From Parasphingorhabdus sp. (GTDB lineage Bacteria; Pseudomonadota; Alphaproteobacteria; Sphingomonadales; Sphingomonadaceae): DNA of 64,000 nucleotides. Shown piece by piece: positions 32,986-51,379 of this stretch. The DNA is taken from the NCBI RefSeq assembly GCF_036963705.1, contig NZ_JBALUT010000003.1, forward strand, positions 4,595 to 68,594. Direction: 5' to 3'. Below the pieces are notes generated by a model. That model was not told the DNA's origin. It did no database searches and saw nothing but the letters and a program-made list of their open reading frames with translations. Position 1 is the first letter of the stretch. The number at the start of each line of letters is the position of its first letter. Made by a program: the position numbers and the translations under genes.

Positions 32986-33030
32986 TGGTGCCGCTTAGAG
33001 GATTCGAACCTCTGACCCCCGCATTACGAA
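32986..33030 (-). repeat. 45-bp copy of the 3' end of tRNA-Thr(CGU) (distal att repeat of the island)
   Basis: tggtgccgcttagaggattcgaacctctgacccccgcattacgaa is identical to 49736-49780 (CCA end back into the anticodon loop). The sequences diverge immediately outside. Confidence 0.92.
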
Positions 33031-34667: not shown

Positions 34668-34699
34668 TGGTTTGGCATTCTCCTAAATCTGATGTTACT

Positions 34700-35230: not shown

Positions 35231-35267
35231 CGGGCCGCAATTGTTGATGCGGTCATATGAATAATTC

Positions 35268-37007
35268 GTGATTTTTAGGGGGTATAGCGTGCATCGAAGA
35301 TATCTAGTGCCTTTATTTTTGATATGCGGCGTCTCGACACCTGCTTATGCGCAGGATGCCGGGTCACTTTTAAAAGATCGAGAACAAGGTCTATCCCCGA
35401 ATTTACCGAAATCGCTGCCCGAAGATCAGAGCGAAGTCCTACAAGCTCAACCATCGTCAGTGCAACAATCGGAAGAAATGGTCACAATCCGGACGGTGCG
35501 ATTTACGGGCAAGAAAGAGCTCCTGAGCGACGGACAGCGTGCTCAACTTGCAGCACTTGTCGAAGATAAAAAGGTCGGTTTTTCTCAACTTCGGTCGCTC
35601 GCGGAGGCGACTAGTACTGCATTACGGCAGAATGGATATATTCTTGCTCGGGCTGTCCTCCCGCCACAAGAAGCCACCGATGGAGTGCTTACCATCGACA
35701 TCGTCGAGGGGCAGTTAGGTGACATCAGCTTTAATTATGGGGAACAAGTGCGCATCCGCCATGGCTTGATAGAGAGCATCATCGATCAGCATTTGGATCG
35801 TCAGCGACTTAACAAAGCCGATCTTGAATCAGCGCTTTTGCGTGTCGGTGATTTGCCGGGCGTCACTGCTCGATCGCGATTAGCGCCCGGCACGACTAAC
35901 GGAACGAGTAATCTTGTCATCGACGTTACAGAACAGCCAGTTTTTGCGGGATCATTTTTTGGTGATAATTTCGGCAGTCCCAGCACAGGACGGGCGCAAG
36001 GTCACGCGCAACTAGCCTTTTCCGATATCGCCGGAATCGGTGATTACTCAAGGCTCGGTCTTTCAATTTCCGAAGGTCAACGCTTTCTGTCAGCATCATT
36101 ATCTGCGCCAATTTCTTCGAGCGGCCTCAGCGCCACCATTGACTATGCTTATCTGACATACAAAAATCAGGATGTGTTGGGCAAAGCCGCTGGTTTGGAC
36201 GGAAATGCCCATTATGGTGGTGTGAGTTTGGACTATCAAGCCATCAGAACTCGCAACGCGAATCTTCGATTTTCTGCTGCCTTAGATGGTAAAACGCTTG
36301 TGGACGATTCAACCGGAGGGAGACTCTCTGACAAACGAGTTTTGTCGGGCACATTGGGCATGTCGGGTGATGTCAGTGATTCCTTTCTGGGGGGCAGTGT
36401 TACTCAGCTTTCGTTGTCATGGACTATGGGTGATCTCGACCTTTCCCGGGTACCTTTTTCAGAGCTCGTCGATTTCTTAACCCTGCAAACGCAGGGCCGA
36501 TTTAACCGGATCAATGTGGACATGGTCCGCCTACAAAAGCTTTACGGTAATTTTTCGCTTCTCACCCGAATGTCTGGTCAGTGGGCCAGCAAAAATCTGG
36601 ATTCCTCAGAGTCCATCTCGCTGGGTGGACCATACGGCGTGCGTGGCTGGCCCGTCGGAGAAGGACGAGGCGATATGGGGCTGCAAGGAACTATGGAATT
36701 GCGTTACGATTTGCCATCCCCCCCCAAATTAGGCGCATTTCAACTCTCTGCCTTTGTCGATGCAGGCCGGCTACGGATTAATGAAAATACCAATGGTATT
36801 CCGTTCGTAAATGCCTGTTCATGCAATAGCTACTCTCTCAGTAGTGCGGGTGTTGGCATGTCCTGGCAGCACAAGAACTTTGGTCTTTCGGCCAGTTGGG
36901 CGCACGGCCTTGGCTCCAATCCCGGACGCAATGCGTTCAATGGCTCAAACGTCGATGGCGATAGCGACCGCCAGCAATTTTGGCTCTCTGGCTCGATCAA
37001 ATTTTAA
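35268..37007 (+). CDS. TpsB: ShlB/FhaC/HecB family outer-membrane secretion/activation protein
   Basis: Signal peptide (...STPAYAQD), POTRA region (VRFTGKKELLS...GVLTIDIVEGQLGDISF), beta-barrel ending in ...WLSGSIKF. GTG start at 35268 or 35289. Confidence 0.9.
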   Translation: MIFRGYSVHRRYLVPLFLICGVSTPAYAQDAGSLLKDREQGLSPNLPKSLPEDQSEVLQAQPSSVQQSEEMVTIRTVRFTGKKELLSDGQRAQLAALVEDKKVGFSQLRSLAEATSTALRQNGYILARAVLPPQEATDGVLTIDIVEGQLGDISFNYGEQVRIRHGLIESIIDQHLDRQRLNKADLESALLRVGDLPGVTARSRLAPGTTNGTSNLVIDVTEQPVFAGSFFGDNFGSPSTGRAQGHAQLAFSDIAGIGDYSRLGLSISEGQRFLSASLSAPISSSGLSATIDYAYLTYKNQDVLGKAAGLDGNAHYGGVSLDYQAIRTRNANLRFSAALDGKTLVDDSTGGRLSDKRVLSGTLGMSGDVSDSFLGGSVTQLSLSWTMGDLDLSRVPFSELVDFLTLQTQGRFNRINVDMVRLQKLYGNFSLLTRMSGQWASKNLDSSESISLGGPYGVRGWPVGEGRGDMGLQGTMELRYDLPSPPKLGAFQLSAFVDAGRLRINENTNGIPFVNACSCNSYSLSSAGVGMSWQHKNFGLSASWAHGLGSNPGRNAFNGSNVDGDSDRQQFWLSGSIKF

Positions 37008-37018
37008 AGGTGGGTATA

Positions 37019-40000
37019 ATGAACACATCCTCTCTCATCGCAAAAGTCGGTATCCGCTCCTTGAGAGTAGCCCTCTTTTCAACCGCGATACTGGCCGCTC
37101 CTGGATTTGCAAAGGAGACGCTCCCCACCGGCGGCGGCGTTGTGTACGGTAGCGCCACGATCAAGACCAATGGCCGGTCGATGGAAATCAACCAATCCAG
37201 CGATAAAATGATCGCCATCTGGGAAAGTTTTTCGATTGGAAAAGACAATTCCGTTATTTTCAATCAACCGAATGCGCAATCTATCGCTCTCAATCGGGTA
37301 ATAGGGCAAGATCCCTCTCGAATATTGGGACGCCTTACCGCTAACGGCCAAGTCTTTTTGCTCAATCCTAACGGCATCATGATTGGCAAAAACGGCGTTG
37401 TTCAAACTGGCGGCTTTGTCGCTTCGACACTCGGCATCGCTGATGATGATTTTCTGAGCGGCCATTACAAATTTTCCGGCACTGGCGGCGCAATTCTCAA
37501 TTACGGCGCTTTGAAAGGCGGTGTCGTTGCTCTGATCGCACCGTATGTTGTGAACAAGGGCTCTATCATAGGCAGTACGGCTCTTGCGGCCGGGACCGGT
37601 GTCACGCTCGACTTTGATGGCGACGGTTTGGTTTCTGTTGAAGTCAGCGCAGCTACCCTAGGCACATTGGTCGAAAACAGCGGATTGATAAGGGCCGATG
37701 GGGGTTTGGTAATCCTGACCGCCAAAGGTGCTAATGACGCCATGAAAGGCGTTGTGAACAATACCGGTATCATTGAAGCCAACTCGCTCGAAAATCGCGA
37801 TGGACGGATCTTTCTACTCGGAGATATGAGCCATGGCCAAGTCAATGCTGCGGGTACTTTGGCGGCATCTTTTGTGGAAACTTCCGCTGCTCGAGTCGAT
37901 ATCGACGATAGGCTTCAGGTTAAAACCAATGGCGGCACATGGTTGATTGATCCCAACGACTTTACGATTGCAGCCAGCGGCGGCAATATTTCTGGTACTG
38001 CGCTTTCGAACAATCTGGTCAACGGTAATGTTGTTATTTCAACTGCTACGCAGGGTACACCGAATGGCAATGGGGACATTTTTGTTAACGACATTGTTAC
38101 TTGGTCTGCAAATACACTTACGCTGAATGCAGATCGCAACATTGAGATTAACACCGAGATGTTTGGTAGCGGTACCGCAGGATTGGCGCTGGAATATGCG
38201 CAATCTGATCCTGATGGCGACTATTTTGTGAACGCTCCGGTCAACCTTGCCTCCACCGGAAGCTTTTCGACGAAGCGCGGTGCTGAGGGTCGGATTGACT
38301 ATACAATCATTACTGAACTCGGGAATGCCGAAAGTTCCGGTGATGGCACCTTACAGGGAATGCGCGGTGATTTGACTGGCAACTACATCTTAGGTGCAAA
38401 CGTTGATGCGTCGGACACGCAAAGTTGGAATGGTGGATTGGGATTTACGCCAATCTCCAGTGAAGTTGTAGCTATCCAAAGCGGGACTAAGTTTGAATAT
38501 CGCGGTTCGTTCGCTGGAAGATTTGACGGTCTAGGACATCAAATAAATCAGCTAACCATCAATCGACCCGATCATAGATACGTTGGATTATTCGCAGCCA
38601 TCGGATCCGGGAATGGCATTGCTGGTGATTTCGAGAGCGAGGTCAGGAATTTAAGCCTCACTGAAGTTAATATAATTGGCTGGCGTGACATTGGCTCCAT
38701 AACAGGAAACCTTGCCAATTCTTACTTACACAATCTCACTGTTCAAGGTGCGATTGAAGGAATTTTGCCGTTATCAAGCTCAAGTATCGCGGGCGATGTG
38801 GTAGGCGGAGCCGTCGGAGGCGCCGATTCTAACTCTCTACTTAGTTCAATTAAGACAGATGTCATAGTGTCCGGTAGCAACGCTGTTGGAGGAATTGTGG
38901 GGGTACTTGGGGGCACAATACTCAAGTCCCACGCAATGGGTATCGTAACCGGCAATGAGAATACAATTGGCGGGTTGATCGGTTATGTGTTGGGCGGCAG
39001 TGTCTTAAGCAGTTCTTCTGAGGCTGAGGTGACTGGACAGAATCAAGTCGGAGGACTGGTCGGTAACTTAGAACAGGGACGTATTATTGATTCATGGTCT
39101 GTAGGTGAGGTTAGCGGTGGTTTGAACATTGGAGGGCTGGTCGGGACGACCAATAGCTCAGAGGTCAAGTCTTCGTTTTCATCGGCTTCTATCTTTGGCG
39201 TCAGTGAAGTTGGCGGCTTGGTAGGTCGAATGATTGACGGCCAAATTTCCAACAGTTTCGCCGAGGGGGCTGTAATCGGCACTGGCCTCTACGCTGGCGG
39301 GCTGGTTGGATATCTTGATGGCGACGTAAGTGACAGCTTCGCAACAGGCGACGTGTCTGGAAACTTTGGCGTCGGCGGACTTATAGGCCACAGCAGCTTG
39401 GATAATGAGATTACTAATACCTATGCTGCTGGTCGGGTCTCTGGATCTACCACGGTAGGCGGCCTCATCGGAGAAGTCTTTGATAGCATCATAACCAATA
39501 GCTTCTTTGATGCTGAATCAACGGGACAGTCAGTGGCTTTCGGTTTCTTTGGGTCGGGCACGCGTGGCGACGCCACTGGTCTAACCACAGCCCAAATGAA
39601 AGACCCGACCAACTTCATCGCAGCAGGTTGGGATTTCGACAATGTTTGGGCAATCGATCCCGACATCAACAATGGTTACCCCCATTTACGCGCGACGGTG
39701 AAAACCGAAGTTACGCCACCACCTCCACCTCCACCTCCACCTCCACCTCCTCCACCAAGCACCTTGACGCTTGATGATTTTGGTGATTTCTCGACAATGG
39801 TATTGCCGTTCCAGCCGACAATCAATCTGACCGGTGGCGGTTTCTCCGATGTGACCGAAATCGTCTTCACCTTCACCGGTCCGAATGGTCAGGCCGGCAC
39901 AGTCACATGGAACGCCGCGAACGGCTTCGGCAATGGCCGCTTTGTGGTCGGAGCCGATGGGAATTCCGCCACGATTGCGCCTGTGCTGGTCGCCAATGGC

Positions 40001-40939
40001 GATCCGTCCGGTGCATATCAATGGACGGTGACGTTGAAAGCCGGTGACCAAACCGTTTCAGACAGCTTCACTGTGACCTACACTGCCATGGCGACGCCAC
40101 CACCCTCGCCAACTCCTGCGCCGACACCCACTCCAACACCAACACCAACACCAACTCCAACACCAACTCCAACACCTACACCGGAACCAACACCGATTTC
40201 CGAAGAACCGATATTGAACGTCAATCCAGACAATCCCCCCGGACAAATAATATGGGGTTTGCCTGTTGAAGGCGGTGGTCCTGTGCTTTTTGATCCGATA
40301 TTCCCAGTGTCAACTCCTCCGGTCATCGGTATATTTAAAATTAATACCGAGAATTATGTCGTGTCGCCGCGTCAGCAGGCGCAGCTTGAAAGGTACAAGC
40401 AAATCGATGGAGATAGAATTGTAGGGATTCTTAAGCGTGAGGATGTTTGGCAACAAATACCGCTGATGAGTGGTCTTTCGTTGAGTCGCGATATCGTGAT
40501 GAGAAATCTGATCGATACAATGATCAAGCTGGCTGATGCAGCGGGAATATCGATGGATGAGCTGCGAACAGTCCATTGGGCCAGAAACAGCAAGCAAGAT
40601 AGCGAAATTGATCGTTCCACCATATTAGCAAATGCAGACAAAGGCTGGAAATTAGCCCCCGACTCGAAAAAGGCCTTTCATGTTATTGGCCTGAACCCGG
40701 ACAGAGTGGAAAAATGGGTTCATGACGATGGGCGCGAGTATGTTTTCCTCAGGCAAGATGATGGTTCGTACAAGCAAGTAATTGATGGAAGGAATGATGG
40801 GACTTTCAACTTCAAAACCGATGACAGCAGTACGAAAGGACATATTTTGCTAGATGTTTATCCTTGGCTTCTTTGGGGTACTAGCATGGATGATGAAACC
40901 ACTTTTGAGCAAAGACTGGAGCTCCTTCGTCCAATTTAA
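37019..40939 (+). CDS. TpsA exoprotein: TPS domain, beta-helix, GLUG repeats, P14 run, Ig-like module, (PT)n linker, unassigned C-terminal module
   Basis: Signal peptide. TPS domain with FNQPN and LLNPNGIMIG motifs. About nine GLUG-type repeats (VGGLVG/IGGLIG). ATG 37019 is preceded by AAAGGTGGG. 1306 aa. Confidence 0.9.
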   Translation: MNTSSLIAKVGIRSLRVALFSTAILAAPGFAKETLPTGGGVVYGSATIKTNGRSMEINQSSDKMIAIWESFSIGKDNSVIFNQPNAQSIALNRVIGQDPSRILGRLTANGQVFLLNPNGIMIGKNGVVQTGGFVASTLGIADDDFLSGHYKFSGTGGAILNYGALKGGVVALIAPYVVNKGSIIGSTALAAGTGVTLDFDGDGLVSVEVSAATLGTLVENSGLIRADGGLVILTAKGANDAMKGVVNNTGIIEANSLENRDGRIFLLGDMSHGQVNAAGTLAASFVETSAARVDIDDRLQVKTNGGTWLIDPNDFTIAASGGNISGTALSNNLVNGNVVISTATQGTPNGNGDIFVNDIVTWSANTLTLNADRNIEINTEMFGSGTAGLALEYAQSDPDGDYFVNAPVNLASTGSFSTKRGAEGRIDYTIITELGNAESSGDGTLQGMRGDLTGNYILGANVDASDTQSWNGGLGFTPISSEVVAIQSGTKFEYRGSFAGRFDGLGHQINQLTINRPDHRYVGLFAAIGSGNGIAGDFESEVRNLSLTEVNIIGWRDIGSITGNLANSYLHNLTVQGAIEGILPLSSSSIAGDVVGGAVGGADSNSLLSSIKTDVIVSGSNAVGGIVGVLGGTILKSHAMGIVTGNENTIGGLIGYVLGGSVLSSSSEAEVTGQNQVGGLVGNLEQGRIIDSWSVGEVSGGLNIGGLVGTTNSSEVKSSFSSASIFGVSEVGGLVGRMIDGQISNSFAEGAVIGTGLYAGGLVGYLDGDVSDSFATGDVSGNFGVGGLIGHSSLDNEITNTYAAGRVSGSTTVGGLIGEVFDSIITNSFFDAESTGQSVAFGFFGSGTRGDATGLTTAQMKDPTNFIAAGWDFDNVWAIDPDINNGYPHLRATVKTEVTPPPPPPPPPPPPPPSTLTLDDFGDFSTMVLPFQPTINLTGGGFSDVTEIVFTFTGPNGQAGTVTWNAANGFGNGRFVVGADGNSATIAPVLVANGDPSGAYQWTVTLKAGDQTVSDSFTVTYTAMATPPPSPTPAPTPTPTPTPTPTPTPTPTPTPEPTPISEEPILNVNPDNPPGQIIWGLPVEGGGPVLFDPIFPVSTPPVIGIFKINTENYVVSPRQQAQLERYKQIDGDRIVGILKREDVWQQIPLMSGLSLSRDIVMRNLIDTMIKLADAAGISMDELRTVHWARNSKQDSEIDRSTILANADKGWKLAPDSKKAFHVIGLNPDRVEKWVHDDGREYVFLRQDDGSYKQVIDGRNDGTFNFKTDDSSTKGHILLDVYPWLLWGTSMDDETTFEQRLELLRPI
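39716..39757 (+). repeat. Coding microsatellite (CCACCT-type) encoding a 14-proline run
   Basis: The sequence is cca cca cct cca cct cca cct cca cct cca cct cct cca cca. Confidence 0.9.
40091..40195 (+). repeat. Coding (ACN CCN)n repeat encoding a Pro-Thr linker
   Basis: Translates to ATPPPSPTPAPTPTPTPTPTPTPTPTPTPTPEPTP. Confidence 0.9.
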
Positions 40940-41189
40940 AAAGATTGTTCTCGGCAGGCCTTTCATCATGACGGGTCTTACTTGAATCTGCGCACAGTCG
41001 GCGTCTGAGAAAACACCACCAGATCGAGCAGGATTTTCAAATCTTTGGCCCTGTGATCGATCCCCAACGCCGGGAAAAGCGTGACAGCTCGGAGAGACGG
41101 CATTATTTCAAATTTAGGGAAAAAATGGGAATGGAAAAATATCCCCGACCTCACACAGCTTCCGCCATGCAAAAATCGGGGTTGATAAG

Positions 41190-41441
41190 TTAGTCTTTGA
41201 CCAGGCTGTAGAGCCCGTCGTTGTCACGGATCCAAAGCTTGTCGACCGTCCCTTGTCGATTGTGTTTCAGCAATAGTGCAATGTGGCCCTTGTCATAACC
41301 CAGGTCGCTTAGACGGGAGATTATCTCAGAGCCGCGCCGAATACCCAAGTCGATACAGGCGGCAATCAAGACGATGACCTTTTCATGTTTGTCAGCTTTA
41401 GTCCCATTCAGTGTGTCATTCAAAACGTTCAAGCTATTCAT
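41190..41441 (-). CDS. Hypothetical 83-aa protein coupled to the integrase
   Basis: ATG overlaps the integrase stop (ATGA, 41438-41441). No recognisable family. Confidence 0.5.
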   Translation of the reverse strand: MNSLNVLNDTLNGTKADKHEKVIVLIAACIDLGIRRGSEIISRLSDLGYDKGHIALLLKHNRQGTVDKLWIRDNDGLYSLVKD

Positions 41442-42601
41442 AGTGTTTTTCCTTTCATTCCTGCGGCGCCTGCCTCGACGGCCGCAAGCAGTGTGTCATT
41501 GGCGAGATGGGCGTAGCGCATCGTGGATTGGTGATCGGCATGACCGAGCACCCTGCCGACTGCGAACAAATCGATGCCAGCATTGATCATGAAGCTCGCG
41601 GCGGAATGCCGTAAGTCATGGATCCTGACATCGCCAAGCCCAGCCGCCGTTCTTGCGGTGTCCCAAGCCCTTTTCATTTCTGTGAAGGGTAGTCGTGTTT
41701 TTGGATTGGGCACCAGATATGGACAATCATCGAACCGAGGCAGTTCTTCGATTATGTCCAGTGCCGCCTGTGAGAGCGGCACGTGACGATGCTTGCCGGT
41801 TTTCGACATTGGTATTAGCCAATGCTTTCTATCCACATCAACGTGCCGCCATTCCGCATTGAGCAGCTCAGACACCCTTGCTCCGGTCAGTAGCAATAAG
41901 CTGATGATGGAACGTAGCTGGGTGTTCTTCGATGCCCCGCAAGCGAGCAGCAACCCTTTTACCTCTTCCGGCGACAGGAAGCGGTTGCGAGAGTTGTTGA
42001 ATTTTGCCCGCTTGATACCGCGCACTGGATTGACGGTGACCCCGGCAAGTTGCCATTGCAGAGCAAGCTCGAAGGACCGGCTAAAGATCGCCTTGATCTT
42101 TTCAACCGTCGCGGGAGCAAGCCCCTCGCGGTCCTTTTCCGACAACCATTTGGCGATGTCCCGTTGCCCTATGTCGGACAGCCGCATTTTGCCCCAGCGA
42201 GGAACGATGTGCCGCCGAACATACATGCGGGTCGTGTCATAGGCCCTCTGATAGGTCTTGGCTTGAGCAAGATGCTGTATGGCCAACTCGCCGTAGGTTA
42301 TGACCGCCTTGGCTTCAGCCTTCGCTTGAGAGGGATCGCCGACTCCGAGGACAATGGCGGCTTTCAACTCCCTGGCCTTCTTGCGGGCCTGGTCGAAGCT
42401 GATATCACCGTAGCGGCCTATCCTATACTGCTTCTGCTTTCCGCTCTGATCGGTGTAGCGGAGATAGAATGTCCGATTTCCAGACGGCCGAACCTCGACG
42501 GTGAAGCCTTTGATCTCTGTGTCGAAAAACTCTTCCTTCGACTTGCGCGGATCGCAGTAAATCAGGTTTACGAACTGGCTAGTTAGCTTTTCTCTAGGCA
42601 T
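41438..42601 (-). CDS. int: P4-type (DUF4102 N-terminus) tyrosine integrase
   Basis: Has FFDTEIKGFTVEVRPSGNRTFYLRY...YRIGRYGDISFDQARKKA and catalytic TGARVSELL, HDLRHSAAS and LGHADHQSTMRYAHL. Start at ATG 42601 (MPREKLTSQF). Confidence 0.9.
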   Translation of the reverse strand: MPREKLTSQFVNLIYCDPRKSKEEFFDTEIKGFTVEVRPSGNRTFYLRYTDQSGKQKQYRIGRYGDISFDQARKKARELKAAIVLGVGDPSQAKAEAKAVITYGELAIQHLAQAKTYQRAYDTTRMYVRRHIVPRWGKMRLSDIGQRDIAKWLSEKDREGLAPATVEKIKAIFSRSFELALQWQLAGVTVNPVRGIKRAKFNNSRNRFLSPEEVKGLLLACGASKNTQLRSIISLLLLTGARVSELLNAEWRHVDVDRKHWLIPMSKTGKHRHVPLSQAALDIIEELPRFDDCPYLVPNPKTRLPFTEMKRAWDTARTAAGLGDVRIHDLRHSAASFMINAGIDLFAVGRVLGHADHQSTMRYAHLANDTLLAAVEAGAAGMKGKTL

Positions 42602-42805
42602 AATTTTTCCTTTCTTGATTGTGATAAATCCGAACCGCAGAGGGCGGTCGGACACGCGTAGGGGTTGAGGTGCAGGGCTGGCCGCCTGCGGCTCCTCTGG
42701 TTGAATTTTAGGCAAATGCGGGTGAGTTGCGGGTTGTCTGCGCCGCTTCGAGGCATCCGATGGGTGAACATCTTGCGATGAAGCGGCGCAAACTCGGCCG
42801 GATAG

Positions 42806-45427
42806 CTATCCGTGCGGTCCCGGCTCGAGGTCATCGGGCGAAAGCGGCGAAACCGGTGTTTCCGCAGACTCCGCTTTCACCACTTTTTCCGCCATCCAGG
42901 CGCGGCGACCGTCGGCCCGCCCCTCGATAAAACGCAGCCCGCCGACAATTCGCTTGGCATGTTTGGAAATGTACCAACCAAGCTTGCCGTTGTTGATCTT
43001 TTCACCGTTCATGATCGGTAGATCCTCCAACGTTTCCCGTAATTCCGGATTTTGGTAGTCCGCCGCTTCCGCAACCTGGCGAACGGTCTTCGGCGTACTA
43101 CCGAACACCTTGTGCCAAGCCTCGAGAAGGAACCCGAGCTTCTCCCCGTCACTATCATCTTCCACTTGATCAAAGAGGGGTTGTGCCGGATCCGGCTCGC
43201 CGAGCCAAATCAAAGGATGGCGGCAACAGTCAGCCCATTCGCCGTTATAGCTGGCGATCGGCGGAACATTCGACTTTGGGCTTCCGGCCGCCTTCCAGGC
43301 TTCGATGATAGTGAGCACCGCACTGACCATTTCCATGCGTTTCTCCCGCACCAATGCAGCCGGGTTACCGGTAAAGCTGCTGCTGATCCGTTCCGCCGGT
43401 CGGGAAGCCAGCCGGATGGTGATCACTCTTCTTTTCGTGTCCCGTTCCGGTTCTACGTTGATCCCCGATCCGATGAAAAGCACTCGGGTGGAGACAGTGG
43501 CGGTTTTACTCATCCCAAGAATACGGTCGGTAATGGTCTCGCTCGTCAGCGCGCGATTCAAGATTGCATGCGGCTTGAAGTTGCAAACCATATCATCATA
43601 TTCAATGCAGGACGGTGACGATATCAGCAGAGAAAGCACCGATTTAGTCGCTTCAGCGGCATCCATTGGAAAGCTCGCTTTCGCCGGTTCACCGCCAGCA
43701 AAAGCCGTGATCACGCTATTGAGATAACTTTTCCCAACTCCGCTTTCAGGCGCCGTCGTTAGATAGGCAGGAGCAACCGGTAGATATGGCCTGACCGTGG
43801 CGGTCATGACTGCAGAAAGTGCAGCAGCGTAGTCCGTGGGGGTTTCAAACTCAAATTCACAGAACAGATCTTTAAGCTTCGCGAGAGCAGCTTCGGCATC
43901 TTCACGGGAAGTGCCGGGAATAACAACCTGATCTCCTTCGAAAGCCCCGTAGATGCCGGACTTTTCATCATATCCCGGTGTCGTGACCAAAGACCCATCA
44001 TTCGGCCGGTAAAAAGGTTGCCGGGCTATGGCCACAATGTTTCGCAAAAAGCTATATTTGGAAGCGCCTGAGAGGGTGCGAACGACGCGCTCGGTTGGAT
44101 CGCAAGGACGCCACTCTTTGCCTTTGCGGTCATAACTTGCAAATGAACATGCGCTCGCCAGTGCCATTGTCAGCTCGGCTGCGGAGGCCGGTTCCATCCG
44201 GTAATCACCGCCTTCACCCGATTGGCGCAGTATAGTGATCACGCCTCCAGACTGGAATATCTTGCCAGTACCCGCCAGCACGTAGTCGCATGCGTTCACA
44301 ATCTGATCGATCGCTCCCACCTCGTTGCGAATTTGCGGCCGGTTGCGAGCAGATGCGGCATCAATTTTGAGAAAGGACAGAAGATCGCTGATACTCAAAC
44401 TTTCGCCATGCGAATGATGACATTTGAAGCCGCCCAAGGGAAAAGCCTTGCTCGGTTCAAAATAGGCCGAACCGCTGTCGATTTGATCCGTATGACCCTC
44501 TATCCAAGGACACTTAACGTCGTGGATCCCCGGACTTACTTCGCACTTATAGTGGCCGCGCTCTATCAATGCGGTCACCACAGGATTTTCATCCAGGGCC
44601 GGTAGGAAAACACCGTGGGATAGCCCAGCGGGTTGCCGCCTTGGTACCGCTGGAGCCGAGACCACATGCCCCGGCGTTGCAGGAACGTTCAGCAATCCGA
44701 GCCCTTCGTAGAGTGCGTCCAAGCTAAATCGCTTTTCTGGTGACCATTGATCCAACTGGCATTGGAAAGGACCTTCACCATCGCTCTGATATTTAGCCTT
44801 CCCGTTCACGGCAAAAGGTAACCTTGCCCATCTGGCCAGCCCAAAGGCTCCTGGATCACTATGGCCAGCCGCAGACACAGCTTTCTGCAGAGCGGCAACC
44901 ACGTTTTCATCGTCGATCGGCTGGTCGAAAACGTAGCCGTATTGAAAGTTTCCCGGACTGGTTTCTATAGAATAGGTCGGCGGGAAGCCCTTCAAGGCAT
45001 CGATTGCTACCTTCGTGCCCACGTCATCCAGAACGAGCACGCGATATTTCTCAAAAAACTCGTTTTTCGCTTGTAGTCTGCCATCTTCAGCCTCGCGAAA
45101 TGTCGAGCAGTTGAAGTAGTTGTTGGCCGTCGGCGGGCAGGCCTGATTGACGTTATCGGCCGGTTTTGCTGTCCAGCCACCGTCCGTTGGATCTCCCGTT
45201 TTCGAGCAAACTGCCAGCAGTTCACCATCGTCGAGAGAAGGGCAAAGCGCGGAAATGAACTGCGCGTTTGTCACCGGCCGCGCAGTGTCGCTGGACGGGT
45301 CGGACAAAGGTGGTGAAAGCGGTGGTGTGGCGGATTTTTCACCACTTTCGCCGCTTTTCTTCGGGTAGTTTTTGAGGCGGATGGATGCGGCGGAAATTTT
45401 GCCGGGATTCGATTGATAGGTGTTCAT
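42806..45427 (-). CDS. Replication protein: RepB-like primase domain plus Cys/His motif plus P-loop NTPase
   Basis: SIETSPGNFQYGYVF resembles the RepB' primase signature. Has C-x..H...C-H-x-H (KCPWIEGH...FKCHHSHG), Walker A APESGVGKSY and Walker-B-like CIEYDD. 873 aa. Confidence 0.65.
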   Translation of the reverse strand: MNTYQSNPGKISAASIRLKNYPKKSGESGEKSATPPLSPPLSDPSSDTARPVTNAQFISALCPSLDDGELLAVCSKTGDPTDGGWTAKPADNVNQACPPTANNYFNCSTFREAEDGRLQAKNEFFEKYRVLVLDDVGTKVAIDALKGFPPTYSIETSPGNFQYGYVFDQPIDDENVVAALQKAVSAAGHSDPGAFGLARWARLPFAVNGKAKYQSDGEGPFQCQLDQWSPEKRFSLDALYEGLGLLNVPATPGHVVSAPAVPRRQPAGLSHGVFLPALDENPVVTALIERGHYKCEVSPGIHDVKCPWIEGHTDQIDSGSAYFEPSKAFPLGGFKCHHSHGESLSISDLLSFLKIDAASARNRPQIRNEVGAIDQIVNACDYVLAGTGKIFQSGGVITILRQSGEGGDYRMEPASAAELTMALASACSFASYDRKGKEWRPCDPTERVVRTLSGASKYSFLRNIVAIARQPFYRPNDGSLVTTPGYDEKSGIYGAFEGDQVVIPGTSREDAEAALAKLKDLFCEFEFETPTDYAAALSAVMTATVRPYLPVAPAYLTTAPESGVGKSYLNSVITAFAGGEPAKASFPMDAAEATKSVLSLLISSPSCIEYDDMVCNFKPHAILNRALTSETITDRILGMSKTATVSTRVLFIGSGINVEPERDTKRRVITIRLASRPAERISSSFTGNPAALVREKRMEMVSAVLTIIEAWKAAGSPKSNVPPIASYNGEWADCCRHPLIWLGEPDPAQPLFDQVEDDSDGEKLGFLLEAWHKVFGSTPKTVRQVAEAADYQNPELRETLEDLPIMNGEKINNGKLGWYISKHAKRIVGGLRFIEGRADGRRAWMAEKVVKAESAETPVSPLSPDDLEPGPHG

Positions 45428-46086
45428 ATTCTACGGTCCTTAATTAAAAGGCTGCCGCCTGAGATCGTTTGTGGGAATTACGCCTCAGACAACAACTGTT
45501 GTTTGCTATCGCTGAGAAGTTGCTCGCACGGCGAAGGAGACATGTGTAAATCTGCAATGAAAACGGGTCGTTTTGCTAACCAGATCGAATTGAATGATTA
45601 CACCGTGGAGGTGCCCGATTTTGCTCGTGAGCGTTATTGAGCGGATGCTAATGCTAGCTTTCCGCGTCGATATGAACGCAGTGCACGAACGACTCAAAGT
45701 TTTATCGTGGAAGTAACGAGTGCGGGTCTTGCCGCTCGGTTTTATGGTTGTGTGGCTCGTGGTCTCAGCCCTTGTAGACGTCTCATTATGGGGGGTTTTG
45801 CTTTCCCATTCAGATTTAGTGTTTTTCATTCCCTAGTTTCTTTCGTTTCGACGCACTTGGTTCTTTCGAAGCAAACTCGTCTTTAAAAAGAGACGCCGGA
45901 AGCATCTCTGTCCTAGGGTTTAGGGATCGGTTGTCTGCGGCTGCGAAAAACTTCTGCTGCTGCAAGTTCCTATTTTATGTGCCTTTATCCTTTAACGTGC
46001 AGTATCTGCATGGAATAATTGCGTTCATGAGCGTAGTTCGAGAGCGAATCATCGGCCCGAATCACCGGGCGTAGGAGTGAGGGATT

Positions 46087-46437
46087 ATGTCGGACAAAGC
46101 TCTGGGGGATTTTCGGTTTTGTTGGATCGAAGCTTTTTTGTCGGTTATTGACAACGAGGGCGTAGAGAAGCGTGCTGCTGAGAAATTAGGTTTGGATGCC
46201 TCGACGGTGAATCGCTATCTGGGAGACCTCGAGGCCTGGCTAAGCAAGTCTCTGTTCAGCAGGAATTCTCCGAAGGAGCTAAACAATCTGGGGGTGATGT
46301 TTGAAGGCACAGCTCGCGAAATTGTTAGCGCGTTGTCCGCCGCGCAAAAAGAACTACCGGTTCCACCGCCGCGCGCCCCAACGTCTGCGATTGGTATAAA
46401 GATAACGCCTCGCCAACCAGATAAAGCGGCTGATTGA
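46087..46437 (+). CDS. Small HTH protein resembling an isolated LysR-type N-terminal domain
   Basis: FCWIEAFLSVIDNEGVEKRAAEKLGLDASTVNRYLGDLEAWLSKSLFSR fits the LysR HTH pattern. No effector domain. Confidence 0.5.
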   Translation: MSDKALGDFRFCWIEAFLSVIDNEGVEKRAAEKLGLDASTVNRYLGDLEAWLSKSLFSRNSPKELNNLGVMFEGTAREIVSALSAAQKELPVPPPRAPTSAIGIKITPRQPDKAAD

Positions 46438-46470
46438 GGCAGTTAGCTGGGGTCTATAAAGCAAGATTAT

Positions 46471-46500
46471 AAGCGCCCCAGAGTTTCCCCTTGGGCGCTT
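46471..46500. terminator. Hairpin between convergent genes (possible bidirectional terminator)
   Basis: AAGCGCCC-14 nt-GGGCGCTT. The loop is long and there is no clear U-run. Confidence 0.35.
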
Positions 46501-46505
46501 AATCG

Positions 46506-47117
46506 TTAGTCGAACTGGGCCACGACCTTCACCTCCGGTTGCCCTGCCGCTCGCAGCGGGTATTCAAAGAGCCGTTCGATATTCTCGATTGCCCTGCTTT
46601 TGGCTACGGCCACCATCGCTGCTTGCTGCGCTTGTTTCACAATACCTTTGCGGGCGGCGCGGTAGGAGAGTTTGCTCAGGGCTTGCACGGTGTCGTCACT
46701 ATAACTCAGCGATCCGCCGTTGATGGTCGTGGCTTCCTCCGGCTGGAAAGCGACATCGGACAGAACCAGTTTCGGCAACCGCACCGTGACCAGCTTTGTC
46801 TCCTCATTGTATGTCGGTGAGAGATCGCTGAGGTCCAGCCGATAGTCGACGACGGCGGGCACGATCAGTTCCTGCGTTCCGTTCAACACCCAGTAGCGTT
46901 CCCGGTGGGCCCGCACTCTCACGGTACCCTTGTACGACCACACCACAAGGCTGTTCTTCGCCCGCAAGCTTTCGACTGTGGCGGCGAGGATCTTTGTTGC
47001 GTCAACCTGCAGGAAGCCGGTGTGCTTGACCTCTTCGTCCAGCAGTTCCTTGGGTGCTACCCAGTACCCGATACCGAATACGGTCAGGGCCAGTGCCGCG
47101 ATGATTGGTTTGTCCAT
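46506..47117 (-). CDS. DUF4230-like membrane-anchored protein
   Basis: N-terminal TM (IIAALALTVFGIGYWV), then ...SLVVWSYKGTVRV...VVDYRLDLSDL... as in DUF4230. Start at ATG 47117. Confidence 0.65.
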   Translation of the reverse strand: MDKPIIAALALTVFGIGYWVAPKELLDEEVKHTGFLQVDATKILAATVESLRAKNSLVVWSYKGTVRVRAHRERYWVLNGTQELIVPAVVDYRLDLSDLSPTYNEETKLVTVRLPKLVLSDVAFQPEEATTINGGSLSYSDDTVQALSKLSYRAARKGIVKQAQQAAMVAVAKSRAIENIERLFEYPLRAAGQPEVKVVAQFD

Positions 47118-47141
47118 GTTGAATTCCTTTTGATTGGGCAT

Positions 47142-47166
47142 AAAAAAAGCGCCTCAGGGGCGCCGC
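47142..47166 (-). terminator. Rho-independent terminator candidate
   Basis: The minus strand reads GCGCC-CCTGA-GGCGC followed by TTTTTTT, 26 nt after the stop of the 47192-47584 gene. Confidence 0.5.
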
Positions 47167-47191
47167 GATTTGTGGTTGTGATTGGTTGTGG

Positions 47192-47584
47192 TCAGCTACG
47201 GCACATCGCCAAGATGTTCGCATCCGTCTCGGGATGATCCTGGACGAACAGACTTATGCCGAAGCCGTCATCGCTGAGGATGTAGACAGCTTCGAACCAG
47301 CCGCCGTGATCCTCGATCCACTCCCATGACGGGGTGAAGGCAGGATCACCGAAGCGGGCACCGTCCACAGGATTGACCAACAGTGACCAGCCGAGTTCGT
47401 GTTCTGCATCCGCTGCGGTGTCCCCCGGCTGGATGATCAAGAAGTGCGTCAGGTCGGAAAGGTCGATGCCTTCCCAGGCAGTGGTTAGTTGGTCGAGGTG
47501 TTCGGTGAGGAGGGATCGCAGTTGGTTGTCGGCGAGCAGATTGAGGGTGCTGTGGATGGCGGTGCTTGTTCTTAATGAGATCAT
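47192..47584 (-). CDS. Hypothetical acidic 130-aa protein
   Basis: ATG 47584 is preceded by AAAGGAA. No family recognised. Confidence 0.5.
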   Translation of the reverse strand: MISLRTSTAIHSTLNLLADNQLRSLLTEHLDQLTTAWEGIDLSDLTHFLIIQPGDTAADAEHELGWSLLVNPVDGARFGDPAFTPSWEWIEDHGGWFEAVYILSDDGFGISLFVQDHPETDANILAMCRS

Positions 47585-47860
47585 TGGGGTATTCCTTTCG
47601 GGCATGAAAAAGGCCCCCGGAAATTCATCCAGAGGCCTGATTTGGTGAAAGGAGCAGCAACTTAGCTTCTCCATATAAGGTACCCCGATTTGCTCATAAG
47701 AACCAACTCTGCACACCTAATTAGGACCGCAAACCGTAACATCGAAATACAGAATGTTGCGAAGGTTCACCGCGAACAGATTGGCTTTATTTAAATATAT
47801 AACTTATGCTGTTCGCTGAACGAACTACGTGGCCACTAACCAAATAAAAAGGGCGTCAGA

Positions 47861-48973
47861 ATGCTGCACGAAGAAATCGAAATAGCACAAAGACAGGTTA
47901 AAACCGATGCATATCAAATGTCTATCGGTGAAGTGGTCAACATGTACCGTGATAAGGAAATTATAATTGATCCTGAATTCCAGAGATTGTTTCGCTGGGA
48001 TCTTGGGCAAAAATCGCGGTTATTTGAATCGATGATTCTTGGAATACCACTACCTTCCATTTTTGTGTTTGAACGTGAAGACTCGAAGTGGGAGCTGATT
48101 GATGGGTTACAGCGCCTCTCAACAATTCTGGAATTTATGGGACTACTGAAAACGCCGGAAGGTGAAGACCATCCACCTTCATTCTTGCAAGAAACTCGAT
48201 ACCTTCCTTCGCTGAATAATACTGTTTGGGAAGTCTCGGCTGAAGTTGATGGGCTTGCAGAAGCTGATCAAGTCGGACTGACTAGCGATATAAAGTTAGC
48301 AATAAGAAGATCACGGATCGCTGTTGAAATTCTTAAAAGACCGAGCGACAATAATACCAAGTACGATCTGTTTCAAAGACTTAATGCAGGCGGTACACCC
48401 GCTAATGCGCAAGAACTGAGAAACTGCGTAATTATTATGGCTAATCGTAATTATTATGATCAACTTAAAAATCTGTCGGAGACGGAGGAATTTGGGCTCG
48501 TAACCGCAATGTCATCGGATCAACTCGAAAAGCAAAAGCCGATGGAGTATGTTAGCAGGTTTATGGTGCATTTGCGGTTGCCGTATCAGAACAATCTTGA
48601 TGTCGAAGAGTTTATAAACGAAGGTGTTATTGAACTCGCGGGCGGAGGAGTAACAAATGCGGATCAACGCGCATTTACGGAAACATTCCGATTACTAAAT
48701 GAAGCTTACGGACAAGGTGCGCTTCGCCGCTTTACAGATGGGAACCCTGGAGGACGAGTAAGTTTAGCGGCCTTTGAAATCATAGCGGTTGGTTTAGCCA
48801 AAAATATTGATTCTGTTTTGGCAAGAGCGAGCCCACTGGCATATGTAAAAAACAAAATTCAAACGCTTTGGGCCCATCCAGAAATTGAGCAGTTTTTTAC
48901 GGCGGGGATGAGGGGGACAACGAGAATCCAACGTACCGTTCCATTCGGAGCCGATTGGTTTGCGAATGACTAA
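47861..48973 (+). CDS. DUF262 (ParB/Srx-like, GmrSD N-terminal type) protein without a fused nuclease domain
   Basis: Has IIIDPEFQRLFRWDLGQKSRLFESMILGIPLPSIFVF and WELIDGLQRLSTI (DGQQR-type motif). The C-terminal ~200 aa lack DUF1524/HNH motifs. Confidence 0.85.
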   Translation: MLHEEIEIAQRQVKTDAYQMSIGEVVNMYRDKEIIIDPEFQRLFRWDLGQKSRLFESMILGIPLPSIFVFEREDSKWELIDGLQRLSTILEFMGLLKTPEGEDHPPSFLQETRYLPSLNNTVWEVSAEVDGLAEADQVGLTSDIKLAIRRSRIAVEILKRPSDNNTKYDLFQRLNAGGTPANAQELRNCVIIMANRNYYDQLKNLSETEEFGLVTAMSSDQLEKQKPMEYVSRFMVHLRLPYQNNLDVEEFINEGVIELAGGGVTNADQRAFTETFRLLNEAYGQGALRRFTDGNPGGRVSLAAFEIIAVGLAKNIDSVLARASPLAYVKNKIQTLWAHPEIEQFFTAGMRGTTRIQRTVPFGADWFAND

Positions 48974-49613
48974 ACCGCATTCCGCAGAGGAATTTGCAGC
49001 TTTAGTAACAACGGATTTTACATGGAGGCTGCGAGAGGTTTCAAATTTGAAACTCGCTATCGCGAACGCCAAATTGGAAGAGAAAAATGGATTTTTGAGA
49101 GCTTTGGTTGTGATGTGCTATGCTCATTGGGAGGGTCATGCAAAATTTTGTGGCGAACGTTATTTTCAGTTCCTGACGAAGAGGAGACTTCGTTTTTCGC
49201 AATTGAAGCCACATTTTTATAACATTAGATTTTTACGCGAATTGTCCGCGGCCAACGGCACCAGCCATGAGCAAAAAATGAACCTCGCTCACAAGATATG
49301 CTCGTCGCTGGAGGACAGGTTCTCACATTTTCCAAAAGAACTTTTTGATACAAAATCAAACTTGAATTCCGAGGTTCTCGCCGATTTATGCTTGGTCTGT
49401 GGAATAGAATTTGAGATTTTTGAAGACTATATCGATTTTATGGACCGAATGTTGTTGAAACGCCGAAATGAAGTCGCGCATGGGGAAGCAGTTTTTATAG
49501 ATGCAGTTGACGCTGACGATCTGGTTGACCGAACAACCAGCCTTATGCGAACTTTCAGAGATGAGATTGATAATCACGTAACCTTGCAAGGTTATCGTGC
49601 CGCACCTGAGTAG
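48966..49613 (+). CDS. HEPN-like protein (RiboL-PSP / MAE_28990-like) with an RX4H motif
   Basis: ATG 48966 lies inside the last 8 nt of the DUF262 ORF (ATGACTAA). Has KRRNEVAHGE (R-x4-H) about 50 aa from the C-terminus. Helical-looking. Confidence 0.75.
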   Translation: MTKPHSAEEFAALVTTDFTWRLREVSNLKLAIANAKLEEKNGFLRALVVMCYAHWEGHAKFCGERYFQFLTKRRLRFSQLKPHFYNIRFLRELSAANGTSHEQKMNLAHKICSSLEDRFSHFPKELFDTKSNLNSEVLADLCLVCGIEFEIFEDYIDFMDRMLLKRRNEVAHGEAVFIDAVDADDLVDRTTSLMRTFRDEIDNHVTLQGYRAAPE

Positions 49614-49735
49614 CTTTCGTTTGAACGGGTATTACAGATTGAGTAGGTCAAAAGCACCACCCACGCCATACCCACGAGCGCACCCCTGTTTGAGCACGTT
49701 CAGCAGTAAGCGTGATACTTCCAAGCTGAGAGTGA

Positions 49736-49811
49736 TGGTGCCGCTTAGAGGATTCGAACCTCTGACCCCCGCATTACGAATGCGATGCTCTACCAACTGA
49801 GCTAAAGCGGC
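49736..49811 (-). tRNA. tRNA-Thr (anticodon CGU), CCA encoded
   Basis: The reverse complement folds as acceptor GCCGCTT/AAGCGGC, D arm GCTC-AGTTGGTA-GAGC, anticodon arm TCGCA-TTCGTAA-TGCGG and T arm AGAGG-TTCGAAT-CCTCT, 76 nt in total. Confidence 0.95.
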
Positions 49812-50041
49812 ATCAGCGAAATGGATGAGCATTGGTCCCATGCATTTGCATTGATCGCGGGCCATTACCAGCAGAGCTGTGTCGTGACAAGTCTGCGCGG
49901 TCGATAATTCGCGCGGCCGCGCCCGTTTTGCCGATTTGTGACAAACAATCGGGCCCCGAGATCATTATCAGGAAATTTACCATATGTTTACCATAGGGGA
50001 TGCATACAAATGTGGAACTAATGGAATGACAGTGGGGAAGC

Positions 50042-51379
50042 ATGGAAAACCTACGAAATCACGGTGAACTCAACGATCAGGACGCAGCCTCGGCACCTGA
50101 TTACGCCGGCTATGAAGATGACGACGCCGCTATGGAAGCACCTCCTGCTATCGGTCAGGACGAGCGACGCATGCATGTGCGTGCTTATAATTTCTGGGCC
50201 GGTCTGTTGGGAGACAGACAATTTCCCAGCGTCGAAGATCTGGAGCCTGAATCCGATGAAGACTTCGGACCAAATAGTGTTTTGCTCGATTTTACCGACG
50301 GCGTTGAAAATCCGACGATCCAGTTTCTGGGCCGGGCGCTCCGCGAGGAATGCGAGATTGATGACTCGATCACCGCTATCGACGATGTACCGGCACGTTC
50401 GTTGCTGTCGCGGATCACAGACCATTATTTGCAGATTATCGCCAATCAGGCACCGATCGGTTTCGAAGCCGAATTCGTCAATCAGCGTGGCGTGACGATC
50501 ATGTATCGCGGTATATTGCTGCCCTTCTCGACCGACGATGACACCATCGATTTCATCTATGGCGTGATCAACTGGAAAGAAGTCGCCGCGGATGCCATCC
50601 GCGAAGAAATCGAAGATGAAGTGTCGGAAGCCATGCTCTCCGCGCCAGCGAAAATTGCGGCCGGACCGGTCTGGGAAGACGGACCACATTCTGCGAATCT
50701 CGATGAGCTGGAGCTCACCCAGGAATTGGAGATTGTCCCTGACTTTGCTGCGAGTGTAGTCGCCGAACCGCTCGACGAGGACGCGAGTCTGGCCGATTGG
50801 TTGTGCGCAGCCCGTGACAGCGCCGACAATGCAGCTGATTCGGTTGAGCGCAGTCGAGTAGCTCTCTATTCCGCGATCAGTCAGGCCTATGATTTCTACC
50901 TGATGTCCGAACAATATCCGGAAGATTACCAGATGCTGCTCGAGGATTCCGGACTGGTGGTCCAGGATCGCGCGCCGATGACGCCGATTGTAAAGCTGGT
51001 GTTTGGTGCCCAATATGACAAAACACGGCTGACCGAATATGCAACCGCACTAAAATATGCGCAGCGCAACGCGGTCGGAAAAGGAACGCTCGGCGATCTG
51101 CTCGTTCGCCATGACGGCGGCTTGAAAGCTATTGTCCATGCCGAACGCATGGCAAACCGGCCGGTCGGTCTTCTGTCCAAGGCCCAGGCAGTTGGCGAAA
51201 GCCTATTGGCGAAACTGCGCTCCGCGCCATCGCGGCAATTGCAGGAAATTGATGCCGGCGATTCCGAATTTGTTGTGCTCGTCGCTCGCAAGGACCTGAG
51301 CGGTGAACTAACCATAGTCGGACCGGTCGTTGGTAACGAAAAGCTGACCAGCCAGGCGCTCAAACACACCCAGTTCTGA
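50042..51379 (+). CDS. Hypothetical acidic protein (445 aa)
   Basis: Natural-looking composition, in contrast to the Arg/His-rich antisense ORF. No family confidently recognised. Confidence 0.6.
   Translation: MENLRNHGELNDQDAASAPDYAGYEDDDAAMEAPPAIGQDERRMHVRAYNFWAGLLGDRQFPSVEDLEPESDEDFGPNSVLLDFTDGVENPTIQFLGRALREECEIDDSITAIDDVPARSLLSRITDHYLQIIANQAPIGFEAEFVNQRGVTIMYRGILLPFSTDDDTIDFIYGVINWKEVAADAIREEIEDEVSEAMLSAPAKIAAGPVWEDGPHSANLDELELTQELEIVPDFAASVVAEPLDEDASLADWLCAARDSADNAADSVERSRVALYSAISQAYDFYLMSEQYPEDYQMLLEDSGLVVQDRAPMTPIVKLVFGAQYDKTRLTEYATALKYAQRNAVGKGTLGDLLVRHDGGLKAIVHAERMANRPVGLLSKAQAVGESLLAKLRSAPSRQLQEIDAGDSEFVVLVARKDLSGELTIVGPVVGNEKLTSQALKHTQF

Follow-up and report, generated by a model that had tools for sequence, protein, structure and literature searches.

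The window analysed here, a stretch of 64,000 nt from Parasphingorhabdus sp., holds a pair of co-oriented genes, A and B, just inside the tRNA-proximal end of an island of ~16.8 kb (Table 1). Gene A encodes a DUF262 protein and gene B a small, putative HEPN RNase. The pair is assigned to the tRNA-proximal edge inside the island because the 3' part of the tRNA gene, which is the integration target, recurs as an exact repeat at the far island end. The tyrosine integrase of the island lies outside the two-gene system and is listed for context only. A third att copy that would account for its mid-island position was searched for and not found.

Table 1. Positions of the gene pair, its motifs and the surrounding island features in the window.
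Feature	Position	Strand	Description
Gene A	47861..48973	+	370 aa; ORF with two domains, N-terminal DUF262 and C-terminal all-helical
FQRLFRW motif, gene A residues 40-46	47978..47998	+	F40-W46 invariant in alignment A2 (42 homologues)
DGLQR motif, gene A residues 81-85	48101..48115	+	D81, G82, L83, Q84 and R85 invariant in alignment A2
Overlap of genes A and B, ATGACTAA	48966..48973	+	8 nt; ATG of gene B (48966) within the end of gene A
Gene B	48966..49613	+	215 aa; predicted all-helical HEPN protein of RiboL-PSP/MAE_28990 type
RRNEVAHG motif, gene B residues 166-173	49461..49484	+	R-N-x3-H HEPN catalytic motif, R167...H172
Gene upstream of A	47192-47716	-	174 aa, opposite strand; no Pfam matches; function unassigned
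tRNA-Thr(CGT), island integration target	49736..49811	-	ARAGORN; Rfam tRNA, 73.3 bits
att repeat, tRNA-proximal copy	49736..49780		45 bp, exact; 3' part of the tRNA
att repeat, distal copy	32986..33030		45 bp, exact; far island end
Tyrosine integrase of the island (context)	41438..42715	-	Pfam Phage_integrase (1e-31) and Arm-DNA-bind_3 (3.4e-16)

The only Pfam family found in the gene A product is GmrSD_N/DUF262 (residues 23-190, E = 8.8e-25). The ~180 aa past residue 190 have no Pfam matches, and thus neither a DUF1524 domain nor any other recognisable nuclease domain. The protein is laid out as a ParB/Srx-fold DUF262 NTPase-like domain (~1-195) followed by an all-helical C-terminal domain (~196-370). 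The translated ORF contains the sequence LIDGLQRLSTI, and DGxQR is the phosphate-binding motif of DUF262/ParB NTPases (PMC12065111, PMC10952713). An AlphaFold2 (AF2) model of gene A (pLDDT 86.6) was searched with Foldseek, and the top matches were structures of BrxU, SspE and ParB-CTP (probability 0.9-0.99); a profile search of PDB sequences returned nothing. Among PADLOC models, NsnA is the top match (7.3e-57, residues 10-356), followed at a lower score by PD-T4-2_A (1e-31, residues 21-356, corresponding to profile positions 39-350 of 363). The full-length NsnA match suggests that the C-terminal helical domain is the ParBDB described in the Menshen paper. In PHROG, gene A matches phrog_2598 (7.9e-67), and its relatives run into the thousands.

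Gene B is matched by the Pfam families HEPN_RiboL-PSP (PF18735, 7.9e-30) and HEPN_MAE_28990 (PF18737, 3.7e-29) and by phrog_22325 (1.4e-38). Its AF2 model consists entirely of helices (pLDDT 91.4), and the sequence KRRNEVAHGE is present in the translated ORF. Across 64 family members, no substitution occurs at R167, A171, H172 or G173, and R166 and N168 are conserved in ≥ 90%, whereas all six positions of the RRNxxAHG motif (R166, R167, N168, A171, H172 and G173) are invariant in a closer set of 24. On the basis of the model and the alignments, gene B thus displays the hallmarks of the HEPN superfamily, namely an all-helical fold and a conserved Rx4-6H motif, and is predicted to be an RNase. 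Other searches with gene B gave little: no PADLOC model matched it, a profile search of PDB sequences returned nothing, and Foldseek against the PDB yielded only meaningless helical-bundle matches such as 14-3-3 (TM ~0.15), so that no close relative of solved structure emerged either by fold or by sequence. PADLOC searches with its relatives (63 from genome loci, three from plasmids and 10 further ones, including seven from viral contigs) gave only marginal matches to Cas13a and PD-Lambda-5_A. Relatives of gene B that score E ≤ 1e-30 fall into ~392 clusters (50% identity).

Judged from their overlap, genes A and B are translationally coupled. The GC content is ~0.44 over the pair and 0.54-0.57 in the flanks. 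A scan for sigma-70 promoters and terminators found nothing convincing 5' of gene A or 3' of gene B, and an Rfam scan of positions 47000-50100 matched the tRNA alone; NCBIfam was without matches. A sequence-only reading of this DNA had described a DUF262 protein without DUF1524 and an Rx4H HEPN protein, the latter starting within the last 8 nt of the former, as a coupled pair that is AT-richer than its surroundings and sits inside the att repeat of a tRNA island; this description holds in all its parts. The Pfam families it had led one to expect, DUF262 in gene A and a RiboL-PSP/MAE_28990-type HEPN in gene B, were both recovered.

Recurrence of the pair and its genomic settings

In ~70 of the 75 genomes, which were retrieved through gene B alone, a homologue of gene A lies immediately 5' of gene B. 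Given this recurrence in independent genomes, the adjacency is far above chance. The taxa concerned comprise Alpha-, Beta- and Gammaproteobacteria, Acidobacteriota, Cyanobacteria, Actinomycetota, Bacteroidota, Verrucomicrobiota, Planctomycetota and Myxococcota. Where the two genes meet, 52 of 71 related loci show a 4-nt ATGA overlap and locus L001 an 8-nt overlap. In 61 of 66 loci, the AT content of the pair exceeds that of the flanks. The distance matrices of the two genes are strongly correlated (r = 0.95, Mantel p = 0.001), and by these sequence comparisons genes A and B are a true module that is inherited as a unit. Within it, gene A is the more conserved partner in 98% of locus pairs, which does not fit the usual picture of a sensor that evolves fast.

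The pair also occurs on mobile elements. A plasmid copy in B. cereus adjoins a BsuBI restriction endonuclease, a GIY-YIG nuclease and an AAA ATPase, other copies are found on a 5.7-kb mobilizable Col-type plasmid and beside RelE/ParE modules, and 14 of 15 IMG/VR contigs bearing gene B carry the complete pair. In six distant sister loci (L063, L064, L069, L071, L072 and L074), a DNA methyltransferase (MTase) gene lies directly 5', resulting in MTase-DUF262-HEPN triads that hint at the sensing of DNA modification. The nearest neighbours of related loci are heterogeneous and often housekeeping genes, and the enrichment of the pair in defence islands appears only moderate. Gene-pair co-occurrence had been put forward as a check on the sequence-only reading, and its proposal of a self-contained, two-gene defence-type module is supported by this synteny and by the copies on plasmids and viral contigs.

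Relation to described DUF262, ParB and HEPN systems

The same reading had taken the split DUF262-HEPN architecture to be uncharacterised and unnamed, which proved wrong. PD-T4-2, a two-gene system of E. coli ECOR65, is entered as 'DUF262, HEPN' (Vassallo et al. 2022, PMC9519451, Tables S1-S3), and RiboL-PSP-HEPN was entered as 'operon with ParB' already in 2013 (Anantharaman et al. 2013, PMC3710099). Because of these two precedents, the pair corresponds in its architecture to a system that had been described before. The activity of PD-T4-2 against T4 was validated both after cloning in K-12 and by deletion in the native ECOR65 (PMC9519451); the literature searched offers no mechanism for this class.

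We compared the window pair with PD-T4-2 by means of the PADLOC PD-T4-2_A model and the common Pfam families. Both comprise a DUF262 protein of ~360-370 aa without DUF1524, followed by an adjacent, co-oriented gene for a small HEPN protein of RiboL-PSP/MAE_28990 type, and gene A is homologous to PD-T4-2A by sequence. PD-T4-2B has its best HHpred matches in HEPN_RiboL-PSP (PF18735) and HEPN_MAE_28990 (PF18737) (PMC9519451), the families that also match gene B best. Gene B is regarded as a putative homologue of PD-T4-2B because the same two Pfam families match both. The differences are in size, as gene B has 215 aa and PD-T4-2B ~165 aa (derived from HHpred coordinates and the 1540-bp locus), in the higher score of gene A with NsnA than with PD-T4-2_A, and in the lack of any PADLOC model matching gene B or its ~80 relatives. 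Among 5,426 complete E. coli genomes, neither the window pair nor a homologue from an Enterobacter plasmid had a blastn match, and tblastn matches on E. coli plasmids were confined to the DUF262 domain of other proteins. From this sequence evidence, we infer that the pair is a divergent new member of the PD-T4-2 architecture and not a new kind of system. Judging from the PADLOC v2 models, which miss gene B and assign gene A to NsnA, PADLOC annotation would probably leave such loci uncalled. The clade provides a large and well-conserved comparative set with invariant residues defined for mutagenesis.

Three further groups share part of this architecture. Menshen (NsnABC; Millman et al. 2022; PMC12065111) has the full-length homologue of gene A, NsnA, with its ParB-DUF262 domain and ParBDB, and is proposed to link a DNA sensor to an RNase effector (PMC12065111). 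However, the window pair has neither the ABC-ATPase transducer NsnB nor the effector NsnC (inPIN + BECR-type) and has a HEPN partner instead. GmrSD, BrxU and SspE contain the DUF262 ParB-fold NTPase module with DGxQR, and BrxU and SspE are among the best structural matches of gene A. These enzymes sense modified DNA, and their DNase activity resides in DUF1524, a His-Me domain, rather than in DUF262 (PMC10952713). They are single polypeptides with DUF1524, whereas the window pair lacks DUF1524 and has its putative effector in a separate HEPN protein. Finally, the MAE_28990/ParB/DNA-methylase operons (PMC3710099) and PD-lambda-5 ('ParB/HEPN, methyltransferase') combine a ParB-family protein with a HEPN protein of the same Pfam families as in the window pair, but the window clade has no methyltransferase.

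Predicted function of the pair

With moderate confidence, we propose that genes A and B form a horizontally mobile module of the PD-T4-2 architecture, complete with two genes and directed against phages or other mobile genetic elements, in which a DNA-sensing NTPase switch licenses a HEPN RNase. By analogy with GmrSD, SspE and BrxU, gene A would act as the sensor, binding incoming non-self DNA, probably according to its modification state. As a putative NTPase, it would then bind or hydrolyse NTP and change conformation. Gene B, which presumably dimerises like other HEPN RNases, would thereby be licensed to cleave RNA, translation would halt and phage replication would fail, either through abortive infection or through growth arrest. 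In contrast to Menshen, a separate transducer ATPase would be unnecessary. Precedents are found in GmrSD and SspE, where DUF262 serves as the sensor, and in Menshen, for which a sensor acting on an RNase has been proposed (PMC10952713, PMC12065111). The sequence-only reading had likewise suggested a sensor plus RNase effector with an Abi-type outcome, which remains plausible.

An alternative that we regard as unlikely is a toxin-antitoxin (TA) or addiction module, in which gene B is a constitutive HEPN RNase toxin and gene A its antitoxin, so that the pair mainly stabilises an island or plasmid and any phage defence is secondary. The gene order, with the would-be toxin second and its start overlapping the end of the upstream gene, is reminiscent of type II TA operons, TA systems often contain HEPN toxins (PMC3710099), and the 5.7-kb mobilizable plasmid and the RelE/ParE neighbourhoods would suit such a role. 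Gene A, however, encodes a ParB-fold protein of 370 aa and two domains whose NTP-binding motifs are invariant, which is unlike known antitoxins, and PD-T4-2 was both selected and validated as phage defence (PMC9519451). In addition, gene A of Novosphingobium capsulatum (L002) is split by a 3.1-kb insertion next to an intact gene B with its catalytic motif, and in five further loci gene A is frameshifted and gene B intact, where assembly errors or polar loss of gene B expression are possible. Because some loci keep gene B despite a disrupted gene A, which is hard to fit to an essential antitoxin, a simple TA system is judged less likely, although this argument is weak.

Type IV-like restriction is an improbable reading as well. 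Here, gene A itself would be the DNA effector, as a ParB-like nickase or nuclease acting on modified DNA, with gene B as an accessory or second-line RNase, and the outcome would be direct immunity instead of abortive infection. Structurally, gene A is closest to the type IV enzymes BrxU and SspE, and the triads with a methyltransferase among the sister loci are in keeping with a role in restriction. The DNA of phage T4 is glucosyl-hmC-modified. T4 is the phage on which PD-T4-2 acts (PMC9519451), and the partner of such HEPN proteins, which occur in restriction-modification contexts, was named 'ParB nuclease' (Anantharaman et al., PMC3710099). On the other hand, the domain that confers DNase activity on GmrSD, BrxU and SspE is absent from gene A and no other nuclease domain is recognised in it, while the invariant catalytic HEPN motif argues for gene B as the effector.

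That gene A is what remains of a Menshen system, an NsnA gene whose partners NsnB and NsnC were lost and which came to lie beside an unrelated HEPN gene by chance, is hardly credible and was rejected: NsnA is indeed its best PADLOC match, but the idea is contradicted by the synteny with overlapping codons in ~70 genomes and the co-divergence of A and B, gene A is followed only by gene B and then the tRNA, with no ABC-ATPase or inPIN-effector gene in the window, none of eight other island proteins matches a PADLOC model, and HEPN has 0 occurrences in the text of the Menshen survey (PMC12065111).

A reading that goes beyond the DNA-sensing switch and RNase module favoured above is rather doubtful in our estimation. 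The clade with 370-aa and 215-aa proteins would then be a distinct, very widespread immune module unrecognised by the PADLOC models tested, in which a ParB-type NTP switch gates a HEPN RNase directly, without a transducer, and the triads with a methyltransferase would be restriction-modification-like. If this reading is true, the triads would distinguish self from non-self on DNA, through its methylation state, and execute the response on RNA.

A coupled gene pair in a tRNA-Thr island

The pair comprises gene A, encoding a DUF262/ParB-fold protein, and gene B, encoding a HEPN protein. The two are coupled, the ATG of B lying within the final 8 nt of A (ATGACTAA). Both proteins were searched against Pfam and returned the domains predicted by the sequence-only reading. 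GmrSD_N/DUF262 is the sole match in A (residues 23-190, E=8.8e-25), which carries the motifs FQRLFRW and LIDGLQRLSTI; its C-terminal half gives no Pfam match, in agreement with the claimed lack of DUF1524. B contains KRRNEVAHGE and matches HEPN_RiboL-PSP (7.9e-30) and HEPN_MAE_28990 (3.7e-29) over its whole length. The GC content is ~0.44 across the pair versus 0.54-0.57 in both flanks. The pair is real and was correctly described: all factual statements made about it, including its overlap, B length, AT-richness and position inside the att repeat of a tRNA island, are confirmed.

Coordinates of the gene pair and the surrounding island (window positions)
Feature	Position	Strand	Remark
ORF A	47861..48973	+	370 aa
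ORF B	48966-49613	+	215 aa; start ATG 48966
tRNA-Thr(CGT)	49736..49811	-	123 nt downstream of B
att repeat, tRNA 3' end	49736-49780		45 bp
att repeat, second copy	32986-33030		45 bp, exact
Tyrosine integrase	41438-42715	-	mid-island, adjoins neither att copy
TpsB	35268-37007		two-partner secretion, left half of island
TpsA	36980-40939		two-partner secretion, left half of island
TPR protein	33357-34667		left half of island
DUF4230 gene	46506-47141	-	beside 174-aa ORF
174-aa ORF	47192-47716	-	function unknown, just upstream of A

The repeats enclose an island of ~16.8 kb that also encodes a RepB-primase-like protein and an HTH protein. No island protein other than A matches a PADLOC model, and the 174-aa ORF lacks a Pfam, PADLOC or PHROG match. 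A DUF4230 gene is also present near the pair in its closest metagenomic relative (L076:1550-2179). The island (32986-49780) may represent two accreted elements; a third att copy was looked for and not found.

Conservation, transfer and neighborhood of the pair

An alignment of B homologues only was searched against 185,579 species-representative genomes, resulting in 75 loci. An A homologue is located directly upstream on the same strand in ~70 of these, which bears out the proposed co-occurrence. In 52/71 loci the two genes are joined through a 4-nt ATGA overlap; the 8-nt overlap is found in the window, in Sphingomonas horti (the nearest genomic relative) and in a metagenomic relative with an 84% identical B. 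A and B are co-inherited, with correlated pairwise identity matrices (58 loci, r=0.95, Mantel p=0.001). In 98% of the pairwise comparisons among these 58 loci, A is better conserved than its partner (mean identity 0.51, vs 0.42 for B), the reverse of what is frequently assumed for the sensor (putatively A) and effector (putatively B) of defence pairs.

Hosts belong to the Alpha-, Beta- and Gammaproteobacteria, Acidobacteriota, Cyanobacteria, Actinomycetota, Bacteroidota, Verrucomicrobiota, Planctomycetota and Myxococcota, and the GC content of the pair is below that of its flanks in 61/66 loci (mean 0.49 vs 0.61). An exhaustive profile search yielded 2,362 clusters of B relatives (50% identity), 392 of them with E≤1e-30; A relatives number thousands, the majority exactly 370 aa long. 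Plasmid-borne pairs occur in Psychrobacter, Corynebacterium, Bacillus, Leptospira, Roseomonas and Enterobacter. On B. cereus pBCK802, a BsuBI/PstI restriction enzyme and a GIY-YIG nuclease border one side of the pair, and an AAA ATPase borders the opposite side. Among IMG/VR contigs with B, 14/15 have A directly upstream, and A and B each have a PHROG family of unknown function. Based on this synteny, the overlaps, the correlated identities, the host spread and the plasmid and viral occurrence, the pair is a self-contained, widely transferred cassette. Apart from its mobilization genes and a RelE/HTH pair, a 5.7-kb mobilizable Col-type plasmid of Enterobacter cloacae (CP056768.1; loci L080/L098) carries essentially just the A-B pair; its A gene is unannotated and lies at the record end beside the origin.

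A tRNA gene lies within ~850 bp of the pair in 6/60 scanned loci (within ~500 bp in five). One of these six, in Variovorax paradoxus MEDvA23 (L043:8001-8831), repeats the window's layout: ~140 nt separate the end of the pair from a tRNA-Thr(CGT) gene on the minus strand. At another locus (L027:1-4738), two copies of a 30-nt sequence from the 3' part of tRNA-Val, one of them at the contig end, enclose the pair within at most 4.7 kb. The nearest genes on each side across loci (135 ORFs in total) include 7-8 DNA methyltransferases, three integrases, AbiEii, AAA_21/SMC-type ATPases and MADS genes, next to many housekeeping genes. These raw counts from a heterogeneous set suggest an insertion-prone cassette with some association with defence genes.

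Relation to PD-T4-2 and other DUF262 systems

The sequence-only reading knew of no characterised, named system with this split architecture, a claim that does not hold. The architecture is known, named and experimentally validated as PD-T4-2, which was obtained from E. coli ECOR65 by functional selection and is listed as 'DUF262, HEPN' in Table S1 (PMC9519451). An operon link between RiboL-PSP HEPN proteins and ParB had already been listed in 2013 (Anantharaman et al., PMC3710099). Its A protein matches DUF262 and its B protein, by HHpred, HEPN_RiboL-PSP (97.8%) and HEPN_MAE_28990 (96.9%), as in the window; it protects K-12 against T4, and its deletion in ECOR65 restores T4 plaquing (PMC9519451).

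In PADLOC, A matches Menshen NsnA (7.3e-57) and PD-T4-2_A (1e-31), both near full length, and NsnA is likewise the better match for every tested A relative, with 1e-50 to 1e-64 for NsnA and 1e-29 to 1e-44 for PD-T4-2_A. No PADLOC model matches B, nor its 63 genome-locus relatives, 3 plasmid-borne copies or 10 more relatives, of which 7 come from viral contigs. As, additionally, B exceeds the apparent length of PD-T4-2B by ~50 aa, we tentatively class the pair as a divergent PD-T4-2-type system, PD-T4-2B being compared through its published description. Membership of Menshen fails because the NsnB ATPase and NsnC effector are absent, and that of GmrSD because DUF1524 is absent.

In six distant loci (L063, L064, L069, L071, L072 and L074; identity with the proteins of the window 31-35% for A and 24-26% for B), an N6/N4 DNA methyltransferase (MTase) gene lies directly upstream of A. 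These triads are an R-M-like variant of the module and the counterpart of the MTase-ParB-HEPN operons described in 2013 (Anantharaman et al., PMC3710099). The MTase position suggests that modification state may be the input read by the DUF262 component. T4 is a phage with modified DNA. The roles of DUF262 in GmrSD and SspE fit such reading (PMC10952713), as likewise does PD-T4-2 activity against T4 (PMC9519451).

Protein anatomy and possible mode of action

Sequence searches of the PDB detected no solved structure related to A or B. In the AF2 model of A (pLDDT 86.6), an alpha/beta domain at the N-terminus is followed by a helical one at the C-terminus, and the top PDB fold matches of this model are BrxU (7p9k, 7p9m), SspE (6jiv), CTP-bound ParB (7bnr) and pNOB8 ParB (probabilities 0.9-0.99). 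Across 42 homologues, F40-W46 (FQRLFRW), D81-R85 (DGLQR), E56 and S57 are invariant. In DUF262/ParB NTPases, the DGxQR motif contacts phosphate (PMC10952713, PMC12065111). E56 and S57 lie within RLFES (residues 53-57), which by eye looks similar to RLFDS, a motif reported in BrxU. The B model (pLDDT 91.4) is helical throughout, and a structure search with it found no solved fold relative. Among 64 family members, no variation occurs at R167, A171, H172 or G173, and conservation is ≥90% at R166 and N168; YAHWEG (residues 52-57) is a further conserved patch.

We infer that A would sense DNA that is non-self and use an NTP-dependent switch to license the putative HEPN RNase B, leading to translational shutdown. 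A toxin-antitoxin or addiction module with A as antitoxin was also considered, but A is a large, enzyme-like protein. Moreover, B is intact where A is disrupted. In Novosphingobium capsulatum (L002:3725-8645), a 3.1-kb insertion with three minus-strand ORFs (543, 118 and 132 aa), possibly IS66-like in ORF layout, splits A at ~residue 119 and B retains RRNxxAHG; five other loci (L020, L023, L040, L046 and L056) have a frameshifted A. These disruptions argue only weakly against an antitoxin role, since polar effects or errors in assembly may be involved; some of the frameshifts may be such errors, as some of these loci are long-read MAGs. A type IV-like system in which A itself is the DNA effector is countered by the lack of a recognisable nuclease domain in A and the invariant catalytic motif in B. 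The A-B synteny is decisive against a Menshen remnant.

The DUF262-HEPN pair is very probably a defence cassette. It is of interest because the clade to which it belongs is large and not captured by the PADLOC profiles, and because MTase-linked variants exist.
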